Shown piece after piece: positions 14,488 through 44,172 of a DNA stretch of 64,000 nt (its first letter is position 1; each line of letters opens with the position of its first letter). Under the pieces are notes generated by a model. That model was not told the DNA's origin. It ran no database searches and saw nothing but the letters and a program-made list of their open reading frames with translations. Both the position numbers and the translations under genes were made by a program. Source of the stretch: Pseudogymnoascus verrucosus (Eukaryota); NCBI GenBank assembly GCA_001662655.1, contig KV460244.1, one strand, 5' to 3'.

Positions 14488-16016
14488 AGGGGGCTACTAT
14501 GGACGCAAGGTGGAATGAGATAACAGTAATTGAATGTCAAACTTGATCCTGTGCCCACTTGTGTAATGCTCCATATGCTATTGAAACTCATAAATTGTGA
14601 TGTTATATTTGGGTACGATCACGGAAAGGCTTCTCATTCAGCCTTCTATCTACCAACGGCCTTCAGCCAACAATTCCCATTTGCCTCCGCTCACTCTCGA
14701 GCAACGTCGCATCGAGAATGCACTTTCAGGACGGTTTTTGTTTATACCAAACGGATTCACGGGTGCTAGAGTGATGTACGCGGCAAATCACAGATAGATC
14801 CCCCCCTAAAAGCGAACACATTGCGCGGAAGTAGCTGGCAAGCTGTCAGGAAGCGGTGGTGCAGGGAGTTGAAGAGAGGAAAACATGAGGATACAAGTAG
14901 GTACGGGACAAACCCATATTTTAAGCTTCCTGCCTCGCAACCCCTCGCCTTTCCGATGGGACACAGCAACAAACAGACAGCTCAAACCCAACAGAGTAGA
15001 AGAGTAGAAGAGTAGAAGCCAAGAACTTTTCGCACACATAGCACACATCATGCATCAAAATCATGCATCACGCAAACATCATACAAAATTCACATCAAAA
15101 CGTGCACGCAAAAAGCACACTCGCATCCAGCATCGTGATAATCATCATCATGAATTCAAGCAAACAGGTCGCCCACGGAATCTCTAGCTTCCAAAGACAA
15201 GACAAACGCCACATCCAATCCACACATATGCATCACAGCCACAAAGCCCTCTTCCAAGCCCCAAGAGAAGAAGGTAAAAATCGAAGAAGAAATAGAGAGA
15301 AAGAATAGAGAGATCACAACATCACAGAAAACAAAAGCCCGCAGCAAAACGAACACAATAAAGATGAAGACACCGCACAAAGATAATTCGATCGATCCAG
15401 TCAACATGCATTAAATCTCCACATCCAGCCGCCCACCCCTTTCCATCCCCCTTCGTCAAAACATAAGATAGCTAGCGCTCTCCCCTTCTCTGTCTCTCGT
15501 ATCTTGGTTCCTTGTTTCCCGTTTTCCCCAGTTTCGCAAATTTGTGCACTATTAATACAGTTTCCTCCCAACGCACGCGCCGCATATAAACGTATGATAT
15601 CCTCCACCCAACCCCCTATCCTAGTCTGCAGTCTCCTCAAAGTCGTCCACAGCTTCCTCTTGACTGCCCCCTCACACAGGGCTTGTCCTGGTATCATTAC
15701 CCTCCTAGTCGCGACGACCAACTTCCTCTCCGTCCCCTCCCCAAAAAAACGTAATAAATAAGCCAAAAACAGAAGACGTAAAACGGTTTGCGAAAAAGCA
15801 GAAAAATGCACAATCTAACTTCAGGATCCGTTTCAATCATCGGGCTTCGTCCATCAATTCGTCCGTCGTCGCGCGTTTCATTTCAACACTCAACCCAGCT
15901 TCTTGCGTTGCCGAGTTGCGTCATATACCAACCTCCACCATCTTCAAACACACACACCTCATTCTAGGCAACCCCCATCATCCCATCATCCATCATGCGG
16001 TCATAAAAGCATCGTC

Positions 16017-17999
16017 TCATGAGGAAACATCGTATCGTAAAAGCGACACCCCACCACCACCACCACCGCCATCAAGCTGCTGCTGCTGCTGTCTTGTCTC
16101 CGCCTCCACCTCCCCCAGATCCAACTCCCCACTCCCCCGGCTCGCATGTCCATTCGTGCGCGCCCTCGCAAATCCAGCTCCCCACTCCGACCCCGGCCCG
16201 CGCGGCTGCCGCTCCACAGCCCCGCCTCCCGCAGCCCCACCACGCTGCACATCCTCATACGTTGACAGCCCGTGCGACGAGCGCTGCGACCCGATCGCGC
16301 CGGCGGTGGGGATACGTGGTGCCGTGCCGCCGCGCTCATAGCCGAGCGCTAGGTTGGAGAAAGCGGCAGGCAGGTAGTCGTCGCGCGGGGGAAGCTGCGC
16401 GTTTTGGTAATCGGCGTAGCGCGCTGCGTTGTGGGAGAGGTTGGCGGGGAACGAGGAGCTCGAGAGAGCAGGCGACGAGGTGCGCGCTTGTAGGTCGCCG
16501 AAGGATTTGGCTTCGCGCAGCGAGCGTGGGGCGCCGGTCAGGGTGCCGGGAGAGCTTGGCACATCGAGGAGGGCCGAGGTGGCGTTGCGCAGGGTGTGGT
16601 AAAGCGGGTCACGCGACTCGTTGAAGTCCATTGTGGCGGCGCGGGCGAGGCCGCGGCGCGAGGTGTCGTTGTAGAGCAGGCCAGACCCCATGGATAGCGG
16701 GTTGCTGCGCTTGTCTTTGAAGATCTGCACGTGGCGCATGTCGCCGGTTCCGGCTGACTCGTGCTCAAGGCCTAGCTTGTGGGCCAGTTCGTGCAGGACG
16801 CGGCGGTAGGTCGCGGGCACGGGAGGCTCGACGACGAACATGCGTCTGGTCTCGTCGTCTTTGAAGACAACGAGGCGGCCGTAGTAGTCAAGAGTCGTGG
16901 CATCGTTCATGTCGATTTCTGTTGGTGTTAGTAGTGCAATCATAGTAAAGTGGCTTGAGGTTTGCTTACTCGTCTCTTGCTGGCCGCGCATGGACACAGG
17001 CGACGGCGAAGTGGCAGGCAGGGCAGAGGACAAAGAGGAGATGGAAGCCGAGTTGTGCACACCCATCTGCATAGGTCGGTGCTGCTCCTCAAGCTGTCCC
17101 CTCCTCTCACGCTTCTCGCGCTCGATGCGCTCCCGTTCCTGCAGCGGCAGCATCTTCTTGTACTCGACGCGGAGCTTGCGACCCTGTAGCTCCATGTGGT
17201 TCATAGCATCGATGACGGCTGCCGTCTCCTCTGGGCTCGAGAAATTCGCAAATGCAAGTCCGCGGAAAACGCCGTTGTCAAAGTGATAGTTGAAGGCGTA
17301 CGGCAGGGGCAGGTGCATTTCGGACATCACATCCGTGAGCTGCTCACGCTTGATAGCAAACGGGATATTCTTTATGACAATAGCCGTCGGAATCAGCTCC
17401 TCGGAGGCGCTGTCCTCGGTCGATGAACCCTGGCGGTCCTGTCGCTGTGGCTGCGCCAACTGGGATGCGTGGTACATCGACGGCTGGTGTCCGTTCGGCA
17501 TGCCCTGCATTGGTTGCTGGGTCTGCAAGCTGGGGTACGGCGCATTCTGCTGTTGTGGCTGGTCTAACCAGGTCTTCTGGATGTCAGCGGCGTGCCACGA
17601 GCGGCGGTCTCTCGGTGTACTCACTGCTGGCAGGGCTCCCCTCCGCGCCTGTGCCCGGTTCCGCGAGGGCGGGCCCATGGTCGAGCTGAAGGCCGCGGAA
17701 GGGTTGTTACTCCAGGTCTGCGCACCATCGTAGGCGTTGAAGGCCGGTGCCTGGTAGAGCGTCTGGGGTTGAGGGAGGCGATCGGGGCGTTGGGCATCGT
17801 AGCGCATGGCGGCGTACTCGTTTTGCAGGTATCCCTGGCCCTGCTGCTGTTGTGCGTAGGGGTCAAAGTTGCTCGAGACGGCGCGCTGTCCACCTCCGCC
17901 TCCACCGATATTTGGGTATGGGCGGTTCGAGTTTCCTGCGGGAGTCGAGCGGTTTGTTGGGTCGTGATACATTTCGTCGTAATTCAGTTGAGAGGTCAT
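16017..17999 (-). CDS. PIN4: RRM + R3H RNA-binding protein, Pin4/Cip1/Cip2 family
   Basis: PTAIVIKNIPF...LPLPYAFNYHFDNGVFRGLAFANF RRM and R3H motif RRVLHELAHKLGLEHES. ATG at 17999; two in-frame introns. Confidence 0.85.
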   Translation of the reverse strand: MTSQLNYDEMYHDPTNRSTPAGNSNRPYPNIGGGGGGQRAVSSNFDPYAQQQQGQGYLQNEYAAMRYDAQRPDRLPQPQTLYQAPAFNAYDGAQTWSNNPSAAFSSTMGPPSRNRAQARRGALPAVSTPRDRRSWHAADIQKTWLDQPQQQNAPYPSLQTQQPMQGMPNGHQPSMYHASQLAQPQRQDRQGSSTEDSASEELIPTAIVIKNIPFAIKREQLTDVMSEMHLPLPYAFNYHFDNGVFRGLAFANFSSPEETAAVIDAMNHMELQGRKLRVEYKKMLPLQERERIEREKRERRGQLEEQHRPMQMGVHNSASISSLSSALPATSPSPVSMRGQQETSKQTSSHFTMIALLTPTEIDMNDATTLDYYGRLVVFKDDETRRMFVVEPPVPATYRRVLHELAHKLGLEHESAGTGDMRHVQIFKDKRSNPLSMGSGLLYNDTSRRGLARAATMDFNESRDPLYHTLRNATSALLDVPSSPGTLTGAPRSLREAKSFGDLQARTSSPALSSSSFPANLSHNAARYADYQNAQLPPRDDYLPAAFSNLALGYERGGTAPRIPTAGAIGSQRSSHGLSTYEDVQRGGAAGGGAVERQPRGPGSEWGAGFARARTNGHASRGSGELDLGEVEAETRQQQQQLDGGGGGGGVSLLRYDVSS

Positions 18000-19741
18000 G
18001 GCGGGCAACGGCGGCGGATAGATGCAGTTCGCTCGCTCGTCGGTTTCGTTTGTTTGTGCGTCGTGAAAACCTGAACAGAAGAAGAACAAGGAGAAGAAGA
18101 AGAGAAGATCGCTGGAGAAGAGAGTCGTGAGCAGGGGATTATATGATTTTCGTGATGCTGGTTCAACAGGGCACGCTTGGCAGCTAGCTCTCTGTAGCTT
18201 CGACCCCCACGACAAAACCTTTCCTATTGGCGTCGGTCGTAGTCAGGGCGACACGACGCAGGAGAGAAGTACGGGCGGGTTGGTTGGGTATATAATAAAG
18301 ACTCTCGAGCGGCAGATGTAGCAAGAGAGAGTCGTCTAATGAGGCCAGCGAGTCGGCGTGGCGGCCGAAAGAAATGGGATGAGGGCGGGGGGGAGAGATT
18401 TGAAGCGGCGAGAAAGGGGAGGGAGAGAAGAAGGGGAGAGAGAAGCTCGTGAGGATCTTTTGTCGTGCTAAAGGACTAGCTCTCTGGGCGGGTTGTGGTG
18501 TCGGTCAAAAGTTGTTCCGCTCCGGAGTTGACCCTTTTTATTTTTCACCTAGCAACGGAAGGGCGTTAGGGAGGGAAAGTAGGGAAAATAGGGAAAATAG
18601 GGTAAATAGCGATGGGATGAAGAAAGACTGTGTAAAAATGTTAATACAATACAAATAAAATGGGATAAATGCAGGTACAGGTAAAGGATGAAACAAAGAA
18701 GTGGGAATATACAAGTTTTATTAAGTAATAGTTGGTAGTTGTAAGTAGTTTTAATAGGCAGCAGGGGGAAATTATGTTGCTCGTTCTGTTAGTAATGTTA
18801 GTAAGACCTCCCTGGTTGTGCTTGTTAGGGCGTTGCTACTAGTAACACCGAACGACACAGGACGCACGAGGCACCAAATAGAAATGAGAAGGGGCGTCTG
18901 TGAGGCTCTAGCTGTGACATATAAAGCGCGACTTGATGCACGGTAGGACGGTAGGACGTATATGAGCTTACGATATAGCATATAGTAGCTAACATTCTGA
19001 CATATAGTACTTGCATCTGCATCTGCGGAGTAATGCCGCACCGCACACTTATACACTTATACTAGCTAACATAGTTATCGCATAGTTTCGCCCGTAGGTT
19101 TATATACTAATTAGTTACTATAGTTATTACTTATCGCCCGTGAATTTATCGTAAGACCTACCTAACTTATATATACAGGAACACCAATCCCATCCTATCC
19201 CACACCACCCAACTAATAGACGACCCCGTCCGTTACGCCGCCAGTCTAAAAGTACCAATCCAGTCCAAGTCCCCTAACTAATACACCAACTTTAGCATAA
19301 CCACGCCCGGTCCCGGGACACCAACACCATAAATCTAGTGCCCGCGAGCTACGGGACATGGCGCAATGGTCTCGGCCCAGCATGATGATGTACTCTCGTA
19401 CCCCTATCCAGTACAGACCAGACGGACAAAAGCTCATTATATGTAGGAAACACACGCACGCATCAGCATCTCAGTATAATTAATAGGTAAAGCTACTACT
19501 AATTCAAGCTACTAATGCTATTTCATTTGTGTTTATTCATTACTCTCTATGCCTGCAATTGCATCGACAACTCCAATTCGTTACCCCCCATGTAAACCCG
19601 CGCATTCCCATCCATCCCTATTTTCGCTTCCAACGGTATCACTACCTCCTATAAATGACCCCCCCTTATTCGCGCCTGATCCTCTAATTTTTCCATTCCC
19701 CCCCAAAATTCCTGCCAAAAAAGTGCACACACACACACACA

Positions 19742-21851
19742 CTACTGCTTCCGTCTCCTCTTCGGACTCCCCTCATTCGCATCCCCAGTCCCCTCGTCCT
19801 TAACCTCCGTCTCCGTCCCCGTCCCCGCCCCTATCCCCGTCGTATCCCCAAAATCCAAACCCCCATCCGCAAACGCATCCCCATATCCCCCCCCAAACAC
19901 CCCACCACCCACATCCCCCGTCGCCGGATCCCCATAGTACGCCCCGGGATCAAGATACATATCGAGATCCAGATTGCTCCCCTGCGTCGCATCACCAAAA
20001 TACCCATCCGCCCCCGGCCCGGGGCCACCCCCAAGCCGCGGCGTCAACGGACTAAGCATATTCTCCACCTCCTCAATCCGCCCGTCCTGCTCGCGCTGCA
20101 TGCGCGCCAGCTCCTCGAGTTCAGAGTCCGTGTAGCCCATCTGCGCGAGGCTCTGTGGTGGTGCGGGAGGCGGCGCGAGAGCATCCATGCCAGGCGCGCT
20201 ATTACTCGCCATAGCGCGGAGGACGTCCGCACGCTGGGCAGGGGAGAGTGGCGAGGCGCCGTTGGAGTTCTCGTAGTGGTGGAGTGCGTCTGGAAAGGCC
20301 ATATCGCGGTTCTGTGGTGCGTTGGCGTTGGTGGAGTTGATTAGCTCGATGATGTTGTTTGTAGCGGGGCTAGAGGATTCGGGTTTAAGAGGGGGAGAGT
20401 TGGTGGTTGACGACTCGAAGAGTTCTTCGATTGCGCCGGGTCGGGGGGTTGGGCGGTAGTTCCCGGTGGATGCGGTTGATGGGGCGGTGGAGGTACCGTC
20501 TGCAGACGGCGGAGGCATGATGAGGCGTTGTTGGCGGCGGATAGGACTCGCGTTGGGCTGACCAGAATTCACATTCCCCAGATCAACGACGGAGCCTTGG
20601 TGGTGCTGGTCTTGCGAGTTGGCGAACATCTGCGCGATATTCGGTCCACCCTGGCCATCGAGGCTGCGGTTGTAGACTGTGGCGAGGAAGGTGAGGATGG
20701 CATTTATCGACGACTCGTGGCGGTCGTGTAGGGTCTGGAAGGCGACGGCTTGCGAGTATAGATCGTTGTGCTCCTTCCGCAGCCGCGCTATCATGCTCGA
20801 GATGTTGCCCTGCTGTTGCTGGATGTCGCGCAGCTGCTTCTGAACGACCGTGAGCGCGACAGTACCGGACTGTCCGTTGTCGGGCGCGGCAGACAGGGCG
20901 CGGACAGCGCTGGGGTGTTCGTATCCGCCGCTGAATGTCTCCTCCACGCCGTCGCGGTTATCTTCGTCACTCTCCTCTGCGCCGCCTTCCTCCTGCTTCG
21001 TGAGGCCACCCTTGCCCTTCTTCTGCGGGGTCTTGGGCTTATTGATGAGCCAGAGGAGGTTCGGATGGCCGCGCTTGAAGTATGGGTTGTAGTATTCGCT
21101 CGGACTCTTGTTCTTTCGCTCGCTCGCCTTCATCGAGTTGTCTGACAGGCCGACGCGCTTGTGGAATCCGTACATGTTCAGTTGTCTCACAAACGATGCG
21201 TAGTTGTTATGCTTAAATAGCTCCGGGATCAGGTTCTTCGCAAACTCATCTTCGTCCAACACGACGAATGAGTCGCCCCGCTCCGACCAGCGAATGAGTT
21301 CATCGTTCTTGGCATCGTCGACAAAGCTAGAATACCGTCAGCTGTGTACATCTGTGTGGCGTGGAAACTGCTTACCTATTCAACTTCTGCACAAACGGCG
21401 GGATCTGTTTCCGCTTCGCTTGTGCCTCCCTCTTCGCCACCTGCGCTCTCTCCTCGAGCCGTTCAATACTATCATTCTCGGCGTGTCCTCCAATCTGCGC
21501 ATTCGGATCAAACAACTCCTCCGTCAATCCCCATTCATTCGGGTTATCAAACTGTGTCCGCGACGCCGTCGGTACCAACTGCTGGTTCACCGGCCGCCTC
21601 GCAAGCTGCGTCGACTGTGCCGGCACAGCCTGCTGAAATGGCGCATTCGAAACCCCATTCGCACCATACTGCGCCATTCCAAAGTTCATATCCGGGAACA
21701 CCGCGTTGTCAGCCGCGCCTTGGTTCCACCTCATGTACTGCTCGTTCGTAGCCTGCTGCGGCGGCGGGAAGGGTTGGTTCTGCATGGCGAGGTTCGGGAC
21801 GGGGGACGCACCGGGCGCTGCTCTTTTTCGTGAGTTTGCAGGCGGAGGCAT
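19742..21851 (-). CDS. HSF1: Heat shock transcription factor
   Basis: HSF DNA-binding domain IPPFVQKLN|SFVDD...LFKHNNYASFVRQLNMYGFHK across intron 21327-21375, followed by a coiled coil; no receiver domain, so not Skn7. Alternative in-frame ATG at 21863. Confidence 0.9.
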
Positions 21852-23000
21852 CCACGCGGTCATCCAGGTGGGGGAAGCGGACCGGCGGCAGCGAGGGGGG
21901 GCGTCTGTGGCACGGCGTTATCGTGGCGGGGTGAAGTTTGTGTTGGTCCCCGAGGATATATGCAGGATGCCTAGCGAGGGCGACAATGAGTGTGATGTAG
22001 CCGGCGGACGGATCGGTTTGCGTTCCAAGGGTATGTGTCCAAAAAGTTGTATCGTCAACCGGTGGGTTGTTCTGGCGGATCGTGGAGGAGCGTGGAGGGT
22101 TGCTTTTATCTTTCTGGGTCGTCACCGCTTAAATGTCCACCTGAAATCGGCAGAGTGAAAGGGAATGTCTTCGTCAATGCCAGGCGGTTCAGACGGCGTC
22201 TATTGTCCGTATGAGATTTTTTAAGGTAGGCTGTGCGTCATCTGTGTCTCAGTTATTCGTGTCAATGAGACTTGTTCGTGCTGTTCGGGGAGCTGCAGCT
22301 GTGTTGCAGGATCGACTTTGTTGGGCGGGCGCAAGGAGATGCGTGGGACAGTGTCTGAAGGCTGGTTATTGAGGCTTTGAGGCGAAAGTCTCAGGTATGA
22401 TTTTATCTTTCAGGGGATTCCCATTGCCGTTTCGTCTGAGGGATGGGTCGCAATGGTCGTGAACGGTCGTAAGGCTCTGTTGTCGCGCAAATTGGGGTTT
22501 GATGCTGTTGATGTCTTGGTTTTTCAACGGATCACCATTGTCGATGATATCAGCTCACGATAGCGATCTATGTCACGTGATATATCGAGATTTCTCAGAT
22601 ATTTCATTCCCAGCATGTCAGATAAATTAGATTTCTTTATGAAAAATGAAAATAATAAAATAATACGTTCATTGATATGAAAATGTTGCTGCCTATAGAC
22701 AAAGTGTCGTCATTTGTCTGTCCTTTGAAAGGCACCTATTTAAAGAATAAGAGACATTTATTTCATATTTTATTTTTATATTTTTAGCAATATCCATGCA
22801 TCAGGAAACTGGGGGGTTTCAAATATAAACCCGGCGCTGTATCCACCTCAACTCACCTCAACCCCTCTTGATCAACCACCCCTATTTTCCCCTCATCGAG
22901 GAGAGCACAGGCATTGCAGCCTGTGGCCTGTTTCGGTTTATCATTGCATGAGAACTTTGACTTCTGAATTATAGTATTATTTTAAGTCGGCGCGGCGCGT

Positions 23001-23800
23001 CTAACCTGCCAGCTTTAGGTCCTCCTCTACTTCTTGAAGTATCTCCATCATCTGAGAATTGGGTGACTCTAGGTCATCAAAGATACTAGAGATAGACCCT
23101 AGGTAGTCAAAGATACTAGGGCTAGCTAACGGGTTAAAGATAATCTGTATTGCAGAAGGTTAGGTAAAATTTGTAAACTTAGCCCCAGAATTTCCACCTG
23201 AGCTAGATTCGCATTTAACTTACATATACAGTATCTTCTCCACCTGACGAGACTTTGATGCTGTAATCAGAACATGTGGATCCAGATCCACATATATGTG
23301 TAGTGCTTTTCTGACCGTATAGGTCAATATGATCGCTGCCAAATATTGGTGCACTCCAGGTGCTGTACGTTGTGCCAGACTTTGGGCCTGCGACGTAGCT
23401 CATTCCCCAACGACTATCATCAGTTGCACATAGGTCTCCTCCTGACGATGAGGACTTCCCAGACACATGACCTACTGAAGCACACGTTACTCCATAGCCT
23501 GTTACTTGGGCAGTTGCATTGCTGCCCTTGTCGTACTACCCATGAATGAATGATTAGCCTCAACCATTGAAAAATTCCAACAGAACTCACCATGCAGTGG
23601 ACTACTGATGTGGGAACGTCGAATGTCACTTTGAAAGGCTGGAAAGGTGTTGAATCATAATATACACATCCCTTTACATTGGCACCTATGTGGCAGCTCT
23701 TAGTTATTGGAAGAGCGGCATAGATCTTCAGCTGTTACTTACCTGCTCCGGCACTTGAGCCAAGGATGAGACATCCTAAAACAAGTGCATATAGCAACAT
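23001..23800 (-). CDS. Small secreted cysteine-containing protein, 202 aa, 4 exons
   Basis: Exons 23800-23743, 23685-23591, 23535-23224 and 23144-23001 join in frame through canonical GT-AG introns. Signal peptide MLLYALVLGCLILGSSAGA; 6 Cys in the mature part. Confidence 0.8.
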
Positions 23801-24168
23801 AGTAAAAAGTTGGACGGGTGATCTAAGCGTCCTAACGTTAGCAACAACTATATTGGACCCTTGTTCTACTTGCACTTACAGCGTGTTATAACTTTTTATA
23901 TCACTCTGAGTTGCACTTTTTCGGAAAGCTTTCAGATTTACAAAGTCGAAAGAAACGAAATTCTTCATCATATATAACTTCAAGCACAGTCCTAAAGTAT
24001 ATCATTTCGACATCATTATGATGTCAACATAATTTCGCGATGTCAGTAAGTTTTTGGGACTTTGGTCGAGAATCGCGTCGTGATAGTGGCCTTACACGTG
24101 ACCGCCATCCCAATTGCCCTAGCAATACCACGACCAGTCGCGATCACTTAAGACACGGCCAACCCCCC

Positions 24169-37255: not shown

Positions 37256-38235
37256 TCAAGGACCAAGAACGCCAGCTTGGAAACGAAGTCAGCTCAAAGC
37301 AATGCGACAGTCAGGGACACCAGGAAGGATAATAACTTACCAATTACAACAGCCTGCCAACCCCTCATACGATCAATCTCCTTCTTCAACATCACCAACA
37401 CCGTCACCACAACCACCGCCTCGGAGATGCCACTACCGCCTTTGTCCACCCCGTCGCCAGATGACCACTCCCCCTCAAGCGACAACTCCAACCTTCCCCC
37501 GTTCCCAGCATTCGACTTCTTCGTCCCCGGTGTACGTGTCTCTTCGCCCCTCACAAGCCTCGCAACCTGCCTTCGCTCATCCCCCACCACTCGCTCGAGA
37601 ATAAGCAGGTTATCGCATCCCTCTCCCCTTGCCTCCGCAACCCTCTTCCGCTCCTTCCGCCCGCCATACCGCCACTCAAACCTTTGGCCCCCAAACCCAA
37701 ATGCCAGAGTCCGGCTCGTCCACCGTGTCTCCATTGTGAACTCTGACCGCCCCGTCGCGTCGTCTAGGATCTCCACTACCGGATCTGCAGACGGGCCTAG
37801 TCGGTATCGCGTCGTCGCGATGGGGGTGCGCGTCTCATCGTCGGCGCGAACAAGATCGCAGTGCCCCTTTGTGCGCAGGGGGCGGATGGAGATGTAGACT
37901 GGGACTTCGCAGCGACCAGTCGCGCCAACAGTGAAGATGGGTGTCTCAAGCGTCTTTGGGGGGGTGGGAAGGGACACCATGCTGTGACCTGATGTTTGGA
38001 TTTGGAGACATGATGTGGGGGTAAAGGGGCCAGAGGTGTGGGTGATTGTAGTGGAAGAGGCGTGGGAGAGGAGGGAGGCGGAAGTGGAGGCCGCGGTTGA
38101 GGGGGCGAGGGAGGCCGTATCGAAGGGGTTCTTGGATGAGGGGGCAATGGAGGCCGCATCGAATGGATTTTGGGGATCAATGGCGGAGTAAGAGGAAAGG
38201 CGGCGAAGGCCGTTGTTGCTTTTCTTCGCGTCCAT
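37256..38235 (-). CDS. Conserved-looking fungal hypothetical protein
   Basis: 313-aa ORF with two NPFD repeats at the N-terminus and a terminal VLVMLKKEIDR helix. A likely last intron (GTAAGT...CTGAC...AAG) gives the end ...VIAGVLGP*. Confidence 0.65.
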
Positions 38236-38553
38236 TGTGCACAGATTTCTGATAGCTCTATGGGATACGCTTATGATAGAAAAATGTGCCCGGTGATAAT
38301 AGGAAATCAGAGATTGGATAGATTTGCAAATGAGTTATCGAAGAGACGAAAGAAAGCCCCAAGAGGAACCACTCACTCTATATAGACACATCTCAGAACT
38401 CAGCCTCCATCCACACAACGCCGTAAATGGCAAGTTATCCCTCCCTGACTTGAGATCTGCGAAATCCATCCATGATTGCTCTTGGCGCGATTGCCTAATA
38501 TGGAGCTGAATGCGACAACGCGACGCTAGTCTCCATCAAGTAAGTCACCTGAT

Positions 38554-39321
38554 TTATAATTTTTTGTTGCTGTGCCGACAAGTTTGTGGTGAGAGAATTC
38601 CTACTTGCCAGAGCTTCAGGTAGAAATTATGATAATATGTTACGTTCAAGGAGAGCAAAACTTGGTAGAGTAATAACATACTACCGACAAAAACCCCTCC
38701 ATGGCCCTCTATTTCATTTAGCTTCAGTGTTAATGGCCTAGAAGCTGCACAGCTATGCGTGTTGTCTATTCTCGACAATGAACCTATTTGAGAAAAGTCG
38801 CGCTCTGAAAGTTGCAGGAGTATGTCTGCTACTTGGCGGTATACGGTTTCTAGGTCGTTGTCGTCGATGTCGGACCTCAAAATTGCGCCGTGCTCAGGTT
38901 CAGGACGCCCCTCAAGAATCTTCCCGAGGGACTCGCCTTCAATAAACTCCATAATAATGAATGTTCCTAATCCCAGAGGATTATCATCTGACGTTCCCCA
39001 TGCAATGACGAGCGGAATTGGGATGCTAGTCTCTAGCTTGATAAATTGCATAGTTGCAACTTCACGTCGGGTCTTTTCATCTCCATTCATAACCTTCCCA
39101 GGTACAGCAAACCGCACTATCCATTTTACATAATCTTCAAACTGCACTTTGCAGCTCCAATTAAAGGAGCCGCATAGATCGCCGACGACTTCGCAAGGTA
39201 GGCCATTTCGGAAAGTAGACAGCCACGTAGATAGGGAGCCATCTCGAACCTTATTAAATTTTCCCAACCATGCGAGTGAATCAGCACGGTGGGAACTCTC
39301 AGCGCGATCATCCCAATCCAT
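38554..39321 (-). pseudogene. Truncated APH/phosphotransferase (kinase-like) family gene
   Basis: GSFNWSCKVQF, WIVRFAVPG, EVATMQFI, IPIPLVIAWG, FIIMEFIEG and FSQIGSL N-lobe motifs. No HxD catalytic segment found before the next gene. In-frame ATGs at 39390 and 39321. Confidence 0.65.
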
Positions 39322-39408
39322 ATCGGTGATGTCGATGCCGGTGGTTGGGACGGGATGAGTGAGTAGAACTAAACTCGGCGGTGGCGCCATAACAGAGTTC
39401 ACGATCGT

Positions 39409-40115
39409 CTATGCTGTCACCACCTCGTCTCTACCAGGGCTCATCAAACCCGTCTCATCCGTTCGCTGTTGGTCTTCACGGTTGCGCCGAATCCACCGAC
39501 GACGCGCTATAAACCGACCCGTCTCGACAACTCCGCCGAAAATGAAGAAGACGATGCGAAATCCTCTACAGTCGTGTGTATTAGCATTATCCGCTCAAAG
39601 AGGGGAGACCAGGTCTTACGATATTGTAGCTAGCAGCGCAATTGCGGCTTGGCGGTCTACATCTGTTGGGCCTCCGAACTCGGCGACTTTATCTGCGGCC
39701 TTCTGATCGGAGCGGACAATGACGACCACACTACCAACAGAGAACCCGAGGGCTACTGCGTCCATAAAAGCTGTTGACCTGGGCAAAAGGCCGCCGATCT
39801 TGTCCCTCGTGTGCCGTAGCTGGCCGACCTGTTCCCAATCGATGAATGCTGCGATAATAGACTGCGGCGTGTTAGCAAGCGTGGTATTAAATGCCCAAGC
39901 AGGTGCAGACGTACCCCCAAGCTCCCAAGGACACCACCGCCCATGTCGCCATTCTTGTATTGCGCGACACAGTAGCGGATCAGGATGGCAAAAGTCGCTA
40001 AGCTAACCAAGACAGAAATGAGCCGTAGAAACAATATGAGATTGCCGAAGTTGCGGCGGCGGCTGCGGATGAGGGTGGGGGTGGCTGGCTGTGTCTCGGG
40101 GATTAAGGGATCCAT
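39409..40115 (-). CDS. Small four-helix membrane protein (MARVEL-like topology), 3 exons
   Basis: MDPLIPET...ILFLRLISVLVSLATFAILI...GSLG|SIIAAFIDW...AVALGFSVGSVVVIV...IALLATIS|GFRIVFFIFGGVV; both introns canonical and the frame is maintained. Confidence 0.7.
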
Positions 40116-41102
40116 GGCAGCTTGATGTCTAAGGTGAGCAGCCCGCGTGTGAAAGCATAGAGATAGGGGAGTAGGAGGCAACTTTCTAAGCCTAATGTAA
40201 AAGATTGTGAGGCTGATGATGGTCGTTGTACTTGTGAGGAGCGAGGCTGATAGAACAGTCAATGCACCCCATGATCCCTGTCCTCAGCCTCAACACACAT
40301 TGAATCCACAATATCCGTTGTTGTATCTTGTCCAGGACAAGAAAAAAGGCTTGGATCTCTCACCGAAGCGTAAGGCTGGATTATAGCCGCACCTGCTTAC
40401 GGCCAATGAGCGGCTGCAAGACGAGGCCCCTTTATATCCAGATTAGGACCCTCCGCGTTCCGGAGATATTAGCTCAAGAAAGCGGGTCTCGGTGTCGTCG
40501 AGAACTAAGGATGCTTATTGGCCTAAGTGGAGATTAGTGCCACTCCGGAATGGACCGTCCCATTTGACAGCGCCGTGGGAAATCTAAAAATAATACGCTA
40601 ATATTATTGGATAAAAATACCCTGGTACTCTTAATGCGCCCCCCCATGGAGTACTATTGATGTGATAAATGCGACAATTCAGTCCAATTTCCTTTATAGC
40701 TATAATGATAAGAAGTCTTATCATGAAGCCTAGTTCTCAACATGTCTTGACATATACCAGAGTATTAGCTTGTAGATTACTTGCGCGGATCGCAGCCATG
40801 CTCTTCTGTATGCCATCGCAGCAATAGATGGTCTCGGAAACAAGTCGGTAAAGTTGTATGATATCCATGCAATTTCGAACAATTAGTAGCCCTATATCTA
40901 ATAATTTGGAGCAAATCATAAAACCCAGGATATGCAGGCTATCAGGCACTGCTCATAATAATGCAGCTACCCACGCACCCACCTTGGAGTCCATATTCGC
41001 CAGACATAGGTGTCCAGCTCGACATCCATTTCCTTCAAGCACCTCGCACTTATATGCACCATCACCATTCAAACTCCACCTCCAACTGGCCCGTTCTACG
41101 TC

Positions 41103-41735
41103 CTATTCGGTCTCCTGCTTGATATCTTGCTTGACTTCCTGCGTGGTATCCTGCTTGGTATCCTGCTCGACCTCCTTGTTGATCTTCCGCTTGGTATTCT
41201 GCTTCACCTTCCTTCCTACCGGCTCCAAACCGCCCCCCTTCTTTCCATTTGGTTCGTCACCAGGCGGATATCCCACGATCCGCAGCTTATCCACATACAT
41301 CATCTCCACATAAACTCCCGTCCGGAGCTTCACCGTGCAGTCGCGCACAACCCACCACCATTTGTTCTCAAAGTTGCGATAGTACTGGAGTCGGCCCTGT
41401 GTGTACAGAATCAGCATGGATAGCAATAATGTTATTATGTGGAAACATCTTCCACGTGGCTATGCACTTTAGAAAAATAAAAGGGAATTGTACCTTCATG
41501 TTCACAACCTCCCTCACATGCTCCGCAAATGCCTTCTTGACACTCGGCACAAAGTTCTCGAGAATTTTTGCGCCAAGATGTGGCTCAATGCGGCCAGCAC
41601 AGATGAGATCGTCGATGGTGTCGCAGAGGGTTTTGCAGATGCTGGAGTGCGTGTTAGTTTGTGCTTGCGAAAAATCGAGTAGAATCCATACCTGGTGTGA
41701 AAGTAGGCTGATGACTCTACGTCTGAAGAAGCCAT
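41103..41735 (-). CDS. Divergent TFIIA gamma (small subunit, Toa2)-like protein, 161 aa, 3 exons
   Basis: Exons 41735-41692, 41641-41494 and 41396-41103 give SICKTLCDTIDDLICAGRIEPHLGAKILENF...MK|GRLQYYRNFENKWWWVVRD...VDKLRIVG, aligning by eye with the Toa2 pattern SIGxxLxDTLDDLIxxxRIEPQLAMKILxNF...FKGHLDTYRFCDEVWTF...DKVKIV. Confidence 0.8.
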
Positions 41736-41921
41736 TGGGTCTGGTTGATTTGGAAGATGAATGATCTCAGTGAGGGAGGCAATGCGACTTGGTAGACCTG
41801 GAGGTGTGCCTGCCAAACGATGAGATTTGGGTGGCTTGGAAGCAGGTGAGCTCAGTTGAGACGGTAGAGGTTCTGGCTGGGATACGTAAACGCCACTTCC
41901 ATCAGTGATATCGCATAATTG

Positions 41922-42011
41922 GTGAAGTGTTCGTGATATATGAAGAGTTCGCGGAGTGTGGGGAGTTCGTGGTATGCGAAGATTTCTAGGTATGTGAAAA
42001 CTTCGTGACAG
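41922..42011. repeat. Degenerate 18-bp tandem repeat, 5 copies, upstream of the TFIIA-gamma-like gene
   Basis: gtgaagtgttcgtgatat / atgaagagttcgcggagt / gtggggagttcgtggtat / gcgaagatttctaggtat / gtgaaaacttcgtgacag. Confidence 0.75.
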
Positions 42012-42546
42012 AGAATTCTTCCTGAAAAGTGAAAGCTCCGTGATATACGAAGCACCGCGGTTGATGTAGATGGAATGGGCATAATATTGTCGTCCGACGG
42101 ACTGAATGGGGTTGTGGTTGGTAGAGATTGAAGAAGGAATTGTACATCCCACTGTGTATGGATTATAAAGCTTCCATTTGTGGATATTTTCGAATATATT
42201 GTTCTGTTTTGAAGTATAAATGAAGTGGGATGTTGTCATTTGGACTATGTTTCTCGTGGCAGGAGCGATGGGCTCTTTCTGCTCTTGCCATAACTTCATA
42301 TCCGGCTGGATTTAGAGCAGGAACGGTAACAACCCATCGCTCCTGCCGCAACTTGTATGTTCCTTATCTTGTTAAACGTGGTGTATGATGGTGCCTCACA
42401 TTCACTTATGCAATAGTTCGTGGCCGAGAACTATCGAAAGCCCAGCACAGCAATTCACCGCAGCGGCTTGAAATAACACTCGTGGGCGAAAATATATCCA
42501 TTGACAATCTCCGTATTATCATATACGTATATCTATTAAATCCCCA

Positions 42547-44172
42547 TCACTTCGCCCCCCTTCCCGCCAACCCCGCTGCCCTGGACATCTTTTCATTCTT
42601 CGCCACATCCCACGCCCTACTTCCCCCGCCACTCCTCGCATCTCTCTGCGCCTTCTTTTCCTCCTTCAGCGTCCTCGCCTTCTCCCTAGGATCAATCACC
42701 ACCAACTCCTCCTCCGCCTTTTTCCGATAGCTCAGATCCTTCCCTAGCTTATCCGCCTGGAACGACAGAGCATGCGACATCCACGCCCCGTCATCGTCAT
42801 CCTCCGCATCTGCGCCCTCCGTTTGCGCAGCCCACGACTTACAAGACTGGCACTCAGCGATAAAGTGCAAATCGCAGAGCGCAGCCTCCTCGTCTCCATC
42901 GCCCTCGTCTTCTTTGCTCTCCACACCCACCAGGGGCGTAGACGTCTCGACCTCCTTCTCCGGTCCTGCGCTATCAAGCTTCGCCTGAAACGCCTTCAGA
43001 ATATCCAGAGCTTGCTGGTCGGATGCCGCGCCACCTCCGCCGGGCTTGCGCTTCCGCCCTCGGATCGAAGTCGAAGGGATCATAGACTCGAGAGCGGACT
43101 TCTTAGGAGCAGCCACGGGTGCGGCGGTGACGGTACGTTTCATCGAAGCTTTGAGCTCCGCAATCTGCGCGTTGGTGCGATCGAGGAGAGAAGATACCTT
43201 CTGCACTGGCTCTGGGGAGGAGGAGGGCTCGCGGGTGACGGGGTTGGAGGGTCGTGAGGGCAGCGATTTCGGGGCTGGCGATGGCTCGGGTGACGATTCG
43301 ACAGATATGGGCTTCTTGATTATTTTTTGGGCTTTCTTTTCCGCCTTCTTCTCTAGTTTAGGTTCCGAGCTCGTCGAGGCTGCCGTGGGTTCAGCATCCA
43401 TGACGATTCGGGTGTCAAATTTGGTCTTCTTCAGCACGGGCGCCTCGTCTCCTTCCTCTTCGTCGGCACCAAAACTGAGGAGCTGTTTTGTTGGCTTTCT
43501 CTTTTTAGGCTTTGGTGCTGGTTTTTCTGATATTGTTGGGGCAGCTGTGCGTGATCTCGCAACCATGTCCTTGAACGGGTTCTCCAGCACCTCAACGCTT
43601 GTCAGCGTCACAGGGTAAATAGGCCTATTATCCTCCACCTCTGCCTCCCCAATCTTCGCCAAGTTGTATATGGTATCCCCCACAACCCTTCCAAAAAGAG
43701 TGTTCTTTCCCTGCAGCTCGGGGGTGTTCTCCAACGTCAAGAAGAACTGACTCCCATTCGTATCGGGTCCCTCGTTGGCCATCCCCAGTAAACCTCTCCT
43801 GTTATACTTCAGCCGACTGTGAAACTCGTCCTTGAAGCCGGCGCCGTGAGCCCCAGCATTCTTGCCCTTGCGCTCCTCCATCGGCCAGATCCCATTCCCC
43901 TCAGGCGGTCGCGGTTCGCCGAACGCCCCTCCATCGTATATCGATTCCCCGCCCGATCCTGTACCGGTCGGGTCACCACCTTGTAGAATGAACCCCGGCA
44001 CTAGGCGGTGGAAGATTGTGTTGTTGTAGTACCCATCGAGGCAGTGTTGCAGGAAGTTGCGGCATGTGAGGGGGACCTGTTGGGCCCAGAGCTCCAGGGA
44101 GATGTCGCCGTTCGTGGTGTGCAGGATGCATGAGGCCGTGGGTTGCGGCTCGAGGTTATATAGAGAGGACAT
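42547..44172 (-). CDS. CWC27: Spliceosome-associated cyclophilin CWC27
   Basis: MSSLYNLEPQPTA...FHRLVPGFILQGGDPTGTGSGGESIY...DEFHSRLKYNRRGLLGMAN...NGSQFFLTL, plus C-terminal WMSHAL and VIDPR motifs. Confidence 0.95.
   Translation of the reverse strand: MSSLYNLEPQPTASCILHTTNGDISLELWAQQVPLTCRNFLQHCLDGYYNNTIFHRLVPGFILQGGDPTGTGSGGESIYDGGAFGEPRPPEGNGIWPMEERKGKNAGAHGAGFKDEFHSRLKYNRRGLLGMANEGPDTNGSQFFLTLENTPELQGKNTLFGRVVGDTIYNLAKIGEAEVEDNRPIYPVTLTSVEVLENPFKDMVARSRTAAPTISEKPAPKPKKRKPTKQLLSFGADEEEGDEAPVLKKTKFDTRIVMDAEPTAASTSSEPKLEKKAEKKAQKIIKKPISVESSPEPSPAPKSLPSRPSNPVTREPSSSPEPVQKVSSLLDRTNAQIAELKASMKRTVTAAPVAAPKKSALESMIPSTSIRGRKRKPGGGGAASDQQALDILKAFQAKLDSAGPEKEVETSTPLVGVESKEDEGDGDEEAALCDLHFIAECQSCKSWAAQTEGADAEDDDDGAWMSHALSFQADKLGKDLSYRKKAEEELVVIDPREKARTLKEEKKAQRDARSGGGSRAWDVAKNEKMSRAAGLAGRGAK

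Follow-up and report, generated by a model that had tools for sequence, protein, structure and literature searches.

Does a fungus of the genus Pseudogymnoascus carry, besides the canonical small subunit of the general transcription factor TFIIA, a second and strongly diverged version of that subunit, and if so, is this version a working component or a duplicate in decay? The question is raised by a locus within a 64,000-nucleotide (nt) stretch of Pseudogymnoascus verrucosus DNA (GenBank assembly GCA_001662655.1, contig KV460244.1), referred to below as the window. A first-pass annotation, made from the letters of the window, had proposed that three short open reading frame (ORF) fragments between positions 41103 and 41735 splice into a hidden, intact, heavily diverged paralogue of TFIIA gamma (Toa2) with a remodelled TBP-contact strand, located at the edge of an accessory segment next to CWC27. 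Here we report that the locus is a genuine, intact three-exon gene, which has already been annotated automatically in public databases and whose role is apparently undescribed, and that its product is a strongly diverged member of the TFIIA-gamma family by both sequence and predicted fold.

The gene lies on the minus strand, from an ATG at 41735 to a TAG at 41105-41103. Exon 1 (41692..41735, 44 nt) begins with the ATG, ends two bases into codon 15 (MASSDVESSAYFHT) and is joined in frame to exon 2 across a 50-nt GT..AG intron (41642..41691, GTATGG...CCAG) with an ACTAAC branch-like site before the acceptor. Exon 2 (41494..41641, 148 nt) encodes the helical domain (residues 15-64, TFIIA_gamma_N PF02268) and is followed by a second GT..AG intron of 97 nt (41397..41493, GTACAA...ACAG), which interrupts the gene in phase 0 after K64. 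The first part of the 294-nt exon 3 (41265..41396) encodes the beta domain (residues 65-108, TFIIA_gamma_C PF02751), and the rest (41103..41264) encodes a tail of residues 109-161 and the TAG; the tail consists of a Gly/Lys linker and a K/Q/E/D/T-rich repeat with a KRK cluster. The tail repeats are encoded by a 12-nt tandem repeat at 41113..41204 (7.7 copies, 70% matches in Tandem Repeats Finder, strand not assigned). The joined coding sequence of 486 nt is in frame and encodes 161 amino acids (aa) with no internal stop. The two canonical introns and the stop-free protein of the first-pass annotation match the public gene model exactly. That model, P0282, is a RefSeq XP/UniRef record of P. verrucosus, 100% identical to the window protein and annotated as "Transcription initiation factor IIA small chain / subunit 2"; a gene stored in RefSeq and UniRef under the TFIIA name cannot be called hidden.

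Both introns leave traces in the gene models of other genomes. P0013, a read-through model from another species, diverges from the window protein after FHT, which is the point of intron 1, and both P0013 and P0014 read through intron 2 after the equivalent ...MK or ...TK codon. Because both introns are retained, the paralogue is not a retrocopy. The start at ATG 41735 and the 5' untranslated region are predicted features of the gene model. As a side observation, no stop interrupts the frame of exon 1 over some 190 codons upstream of the ATG (window 41736-42311, minus strand), and 5'-extended models exist in two other genomes, P0283 (VKM F-103, 329 aa) and P0285 (P. destructans RefSeq, 254 aa). 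What the P. destructans model adds matches the window in differing frames, and therefore seems to be an artefact of annotation and not a conserved coding region. Three database contigs aligned over window positions 40900-42000 contained variation of the DNA type only, with no splice joints.

The family assignment was examined exon by exon and for the full protein. Exon 3 alone matches the Pfam profile TFIIA_gamma_C (42.4 bits, E = 8e-11) and exon 2 alone matches TFIIA_gamma_N (30.3 bits, E = 4.3e-07), which, together with the matches of the full protein to solved chains, argues that the gene model is not a product of chance. In the full protein, residues 64-107 cover positions 1-41 of the 43 in TFIIA_gamma_C (43.8 bits, cut-off 27), and residues 11-51 cover positions 5-45 of the 47 in TFIIA_gamma_N (32.0 bits, E = 1.3e-07, cut-off 33); the precomputed Pfam listing gives PF02268 for the orthologues. 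The canonical copy described below, P0222, reaches 83.6 and 82.1 bits, about twice the scores of the paralogue. Every phmmer match among solved structures is a small-subunit chain of TFIIA (7 distinct sequences, the best at E = 2.1e-11), including human TFIIA-gamma (E = 3.6e-11) and yeast Toa2 (E = 1.7e-08). An AlphaFold2 model based on a 40-row alignment has a block-mean predicted local distance difference test (pLDDT) score of 83-97 over residues 11-110, with helices at 7-13, 15-29 and 35-56 and strands at 61-73, 76-90 and 93-106 (strand pLDDT 84-94). In the predicted fold, a helical hairpin domain precedes a beta half-barrel of three strands, as in TFIIA gamma. The nine best Foldseek matches in the PDB are all TFIIA entries (E = 1.3e-09 to 4.6e-07), comprising eight small-subunit chains, with target template-modelling (TM) scores of 0.78-0.87 and root-mean-square deviations of 1.6-4.0, and the single-chain TFIIA 5m4s (TM 0.41); large-subunit chains match weakly (E ~1e-3). 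Among the top matches are the TFIIA structures 1YTF, 1NH2 and 1NVP. In an alignment of 40 sequences, the paralogue retains all 14 near-invariant family positions, namely the invariant D25 and 13 positions conserved at >=90% (Y11, L20, D22, P35, L37, F45, K64, G65, L67, Y70, R71, W77 and I104). The proposal of an intact, heavily diverged TFIIA-gamma homologue was thus borne out by the Pfam hidden Markov models, phmmer and the fold match.

A separate canonical TOA2 is present in the genus. A canonical Leotiomycete TFIIA-gamma (Monilinia), itself a match of the profile search described below, retrieved as query 820 proteins at E <=1e-10 among 825 candidates, and the best 120 of these 820 include two canonical Pseudogymnoascus proteins, P0237 (VKM F-3808) and P0222 (109 aa, P. 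destructans name). The latter is 82% identical to the Monilinia query, and its sequence recurs unchanged on 8 contigs, which bear the name of P. destructans or other names of the genus; cluster members add canonical models from P. australis and VKM F-3775. The canonical protein and the paralogue are 36% identical over 97 aa. Of the four accessions displayed for P0222, two fall in the two P. destructans accession series (20631-21) that also include the paralogue (P0004/P0285) and the adjoining CWC27, which means that at least P. destructans carries both genes. With P0222 present, the locus protein is not the one-to-one TOA2 orthologue of the genus, and the second copy proposed in the first-pass annotation holds within the P. 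destructans accession series and, by inference, in the genome of P. verrucosus. No other TFIIA-gamma match occurs within the 64-kb window. In a further observation on gene structure, three canonical Pseudogymnoascus TOA2 models (P0237, P0280 and P0279) diverge or stop directly after ...ADKVKI. The canonical gene may thus have an intron at this point that is absent from the paralogue, whose exon 3 is continuous through DKLRIVGYPP.

The paralogue forms a clade of its own, and as far as called proteins go, this clade is confined to Pseudogymnoascus-like fungi. In a word-index search with exon 3, 12 of the 13 candidates matched, and eight of them are named Pseudogymnoascus clusters; a further three genomes, P. 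verrucosus, VKM F-103 and VKM F-4246, come from the cluster members and bring the total to 11 named Pseudogymnoascus genomes. A HMMER profile built from eight orthologues and searched over 1.84 billion representative proteins found 416 proteins at E <=0.001. Only two of these reached E <=1e-30, a fragment and the representative of the clade itself, which at 271.8 bits was the only full-length protein above 75 bits; among full-length proteins from outside the clade, a canonical TFIIA-gamma came highest, at 74.4 bits. In nine named genomes the paralogue adjoins CWC27 (eight by consecutive locus tags and P. destructans by consecutive accessions), as it does in the window. The first-pass annotation was therefore right about the neighbour; an accessory location does not fit this adjacency, which is not what is expected of a presence/absence locus. 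The duplicate appears to have arisen before the sampled Pseudogymnoascus species radiated, and to have adjoined CWC27 since. In two trees the clade is monophyletic (support 98/98 and 100/100), with a stem of 1.4-3.0 changes per column and within-clade branches of 0.03-0.3, and its attachment point is unresolved in both. When a sister relationship to the canonical Pseudogymnoascus copy was put to an approximately unbiased (AU) test, p was 0.047, a borderline value that a stem of this length makes uninformative. A join with the Sphaerosporella protein P0021 (85/0) was rejected as long-branch attraction.

What the paralogue keeps and what it has changed can be read against the canonical small subunit (yeast Toa2, human TFIIA-gamma/GTF2A2, P0222). 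It shares the beta domain and, by a match just below the Pfam cut-off, the helical domain, in the same order, as well as the predicted fold and all of the near-invariant residues, and 31 of the 35 canonical hydrophobic columns are still hydrophobic, the four losses being Y8S, A38G, F72N and V76K. It differs from P0222 by its low identity, fast evolution and an extra low-complexity tail of 53 aa, and it has replaced 29 of the 56 positions conserved in canonical proteins (>=80% in 18 sequences) and kept the other 27. The replacements are themselves fixed clade-wide at 18 of these 29 positions. Other fixed changes are R12F, G17C, E51K and C107Y, whereas D46V and R47P (FDR to FVP) are found in most members of the clade; the N-terminal YELYR motif has become SAYFH, and the DK(L/V)(R/K)IV end strand is kept. 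The tail has pLDDT <50 over residues 112-155, consistent with disorder, and varies in length among species, with total protein lengths of 137-161 aa. The altered YELYR motif, the strand and the K/Q/D/E tail, like the quoted protein sequence, are all present as the first-pass annotation described them.

Two of the four lost hydrophobic columns, F72N and V76K, fall on the strand GRLQYYRNFENKWWWVV (residues 65-81, 41346..41396, minus strand), the aligned counterpart of the canonical GHLDTYRFCDEVWTFLI, and within the clade both losses have reached fixation or come close to it. The canonical strand is presumably the edge strand of TFIIA that docks on TBP (the yeast Y69, F71, W76 region). Yeast toa2 alleles at Y69, F71 and W76 reportedly impair TBP association, in work said to be that of Ozer et al. 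1998. A strain table in PMC3506551 lists the yeast toa2 alleles Y68F, F71E, W76F and W76A by name only. Within the paralogue strand YRNFENKWWW, the positions F72N, C73F, V76K, T78W and F79W are changed, and Y70, R71 and W77 are kept, so the remodelling of the TBP-contact strand proposed in the first-pass annotation is real in part, with its main anchors left in place. YRN occurs also in the eukaryotic TFIIA-gamma homologues P0050, P0065 and P0075 in the alignment; the N72 residue alone is thus not unprecedented.

These features bear on the partners of the protein. The hydrophobic faces of TFIIA-gamma pack against the large subunit in solved TFIIA and cannot be buried by the small subunit alone. 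Because the positions that face the large subunit are retained, pairing with Toa1 is the most economical reading. On balance, we slightly favour the view that the paralogue pairs with a Toa1-type partner into an alternative TFIIA-like heterodimer and acts as a specialised or modulatory variant, not as a redundant copy. Under this reading, the two-domain architecture and nearly all of the buried hydrophobic positions have been kept, and a Toa1-type partner would most likely still be needed. The altered edge strand (Tyr-Arg and Trp anchors kept, F72N and V76K changed, two Trp gained) and the tail may change the mode or the strength of docking on TBP-DNA, and the variable lysine-rich tail could serve as a nuclear localisation or nucleic-acid contact element. 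Seven long TFIIA-gamma proteins were scanned with Pfam for a fusion to Toa1, and none has a large-subunit domain; P0111 and P0156 have no additional domain, and the others carry parts of EamA, ALG3, carboxylesterase or glucan-dikinase type. A bolder version of this scheme, which we put forward tentatively and consider rather less likely than its opposite, is that the paralogue is a private, genus-specific alternative subunit that pairs with Toa1, offers TBP an altered strand (F72N, V76K, WWW) besides its lysine-rich tail, and works either in initiation under particular conditions or as a built-in antagonist, and that its fast change would be adaptive and not a sign of decay. If true, it would constitute a second, functionally distinct TFIIA in a fungal genus.

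The losses on the TBP-facing strand also allow a purely negative role, in which the paralogue pairs with Toa1, docks poorly on TBP due to F72N and V76K, and as a competitor or decoy titrates Toa1 and dampens TFIIA-dependent initiation wherever it is expressed. We consider such a role unlikely, yet worth keeping in view. In its favour are the retained helical and barrel core (31 of 35 hydrophobic columns) and the position of half of the hydrophobic losses on just that strand, (nearly) fixed in the clade; the yeast F71E allele, listed as a strain name and reportedly defective in TBP binding, is at the homologous position. Against it, Y70, R71 and W77 are kept, and the YRN of P0050, P0065 and P0075 indicates that N72 need not abolish TBP binding.

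Several observations weigh against a specialised heterodimer subunit. The replacement of 29 of the 56 conserved positions makes a loss of canonical TFIIA activity possible, the TFIIA_gamma_N match falls one bit below the Pfam cut-off, and a canonical TOA2 in P. verrucosus itself is presumed from its congeners. The others concern evolutionary rate. Between the window proteins and those of eight species, identity is 78-97% for the paralogue domain (residues 1-108) and 25-96% for its tail, compared with 96-99% for whole CWC27 and 94-99% for its disordered part; in the more distant species, the domain is 78-80% identical where CWC27 is 96-98% identical. Counted crudely, the changes per column (75 over 108 columns) show no over-dispersion, with 55 invariant columns observed and 53.9 expected from a Poisson distribution. 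In the coding sequence, 8 differences separate the window from a close strain, 7 non-synonymous and 1 synonymous (381 and 102 sites, respectively); by a binomial estimate, the 7:1 ratio fits neutrality (p ~0.47) and is incompatible with a ratio of non-synonymous to synonymous rates (ω) of about 0.1, which speaks against strong purifying selection, although eight events decide little. The comparison used the DNA of one close strain, X1, which has 28 differences in 1801 nt, and the divergence of the flanks around the gene is too uneven for a neutral baseline: there are 12 differences in 41736-42051 (316 nt), 4 in 40700-41102, 2 in the introns and only 1 in 42052-42500.

These rate data also speak for a relaxed, slowly decaying duplicate without a distinct function, whose frame would still be open only because it is short. 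The 7:1 ratio, a domain divergence several-fold that of CWC27 and the lack of over-dispersion in the crude per-column count all agree with decay, as do the slippage-prone 12-nt repeat with its variable length and the fact that no RNA record is listed for window 40900-42000, the last being a blank only. However, complete models of 137-161 aa are present in nine named genomes and longer models containing the protein in two more, with no stop in any listed model, and the synteny with CWC27 has been kept in nine genomes. Among nine sequences, 55 of the 108 domain columns do not vary, and clade-invariant sites are over-represented where canonical proteins are conserved (37 of 56 positions, compared with 15 of 49 elsewhere; Fisher p 4e-4). 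The replaced conserved positions are mostly fixed clade-wide, and the within-clade branches are short relative to the stem. We judge decay improbable. The pattern suggests that the paralogue went through a long burst of change and then settled into a partly constrained sequence, which still appears to evolve several times faster than CWC27.

A switch of partners, in which the gamma fold would associate with itself or with a Toa1-like protein in a role other than TBP support, is similarly a long shot. It would account for the replacement and subsequent fixation of half of the canonical-conserved positions and for the new tail, and the weak resemblance of the model to large-subunit chains (E ~1e-3) makes a gamma-gamma pairing geometrically conceivable; it has no direct support, however, and the retention of Y70, R71, W77 and DK(L/V)(R/K)IV would be hard to explain without TFIIA-like contacts. 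Finally, that the gene is the fast-evolving sole TOA2 orthologue of P. verrucosus is very improbable: it agrees with the lack of a second TFIIA-gamma match within the 64 kb searched, but the canonical P0222 occurs on 8 contigs that bear several Pseudogymnoascus names and shares its P. destructans accession series with the paralogue, and VKM F-3808, VKM F-3775 and P. australis contribute further canonical models.

The paralogue has parallels in other systems. Alternative general transcription factors, such as TRFs, tissue-specific TAFs and ALF, tune a universal machine for special gene sets. In grasses, according to two papers (PMC2887407, PMC4993585), TFIIAγ1 and TFIIAγ5 are whole-genome duplicates with asymmetric rates, one retaining the ancestral role and the other being accelerated under relaxed constraint, and TFIIAγ1 has reduced expression. 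The grass pair resembles the Pseudogymnoascus pair in being a duplicated TFIIA-gamma with strongly asymmetric rates, and differs from it in its origin by whole-genome duplication, whereas the Pseudogymnoascus copy is a single-gene paralogue with a new tail, found in one genus so far. The two grass copies are probably also much more alike than the Pseudogymnoascus pair. In insects, PMC4824122 gives 2 copies of TFIIA-S in Drosophila and up to 5 in stalk-eyed flies (Table 1), and reports high testis expression for nearly all of the extra basal-machinery copies of the latter. The insect duplicates are lineage-specific extra small-subunit genes like the Pseudogymnoascus paralogue; they are, in contrast, animal genes with known tissue-specific expression.

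Long-branch TFIIA-gamma proteins occur in other Pezizomycotina as well, in Sphaerosporella brunnea (P0021), Podospora didyma (P0024), a Dothideales species (P0029/P0291), Trichodelitschia bisporula (P0033) and Bombardia bombarda (P0038). None of them forms a supported group with the Pseudogymnoascus clade, and P0021 resembles the paralogue in its long, K/E-rich tail and in an altered strand (RFNNISDVWLW). TOA2 duplication may be recurrent in filamentous ascomycetes, as these other long-branch proteins suggest. No description of a fungal or Pseudogymnoascus TFIIA-gamma paralogue, or of GMDG_04558, was found in the open-access literature searched. With the rice TFIIAγ1/γ5 and fly TFIIA-S precedents, the Pseudogymnoascus paralogue would be a new fungal case of a known kind of duplication, and we regard it as a modest, well-defined lead, not as a discovery. 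One genus carries a single small fold in two forms, one an identical sequence under several species names and the other with half of its conserved positions reset. The pair offers a compact natural experiment on the TFIIA-gamma residues that serve pairing with Toa1 and those that serve docking on TBP. The fungus of bat white-nose disease belongs to this genus, and a lineage-specific transcription component may interest that field.

The surroundings of the gene differ on its two sides. To the right are the housekeeping genes for CWC27, a DUF4291 protein, deoxyhypusine synthase and a Myb/SANT protein. CWC27 (42547..44172, minus strand) is a single-exon gene encoding a cyclophilin-type peptidyl-prolyl isomerase of 541 aa (Pfam Pro_isomerase, 148.8 bits), identical to the stored protein P0423. 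To the left are ORFs without a Pfam match and a sugar transporter of the major facilitator superfamily. The minus-strand ORFs just left of the gene, at 37294-38334, 38554-39408 and 39753-40283, have no Pfam match at E <=0.001. Farther left, the fraction of G and C is 0.62 at 16001-18000 and 0.60 at 20001-22000 and then falls to 0.44 at 22001-24000, around a window mean of 0.505.

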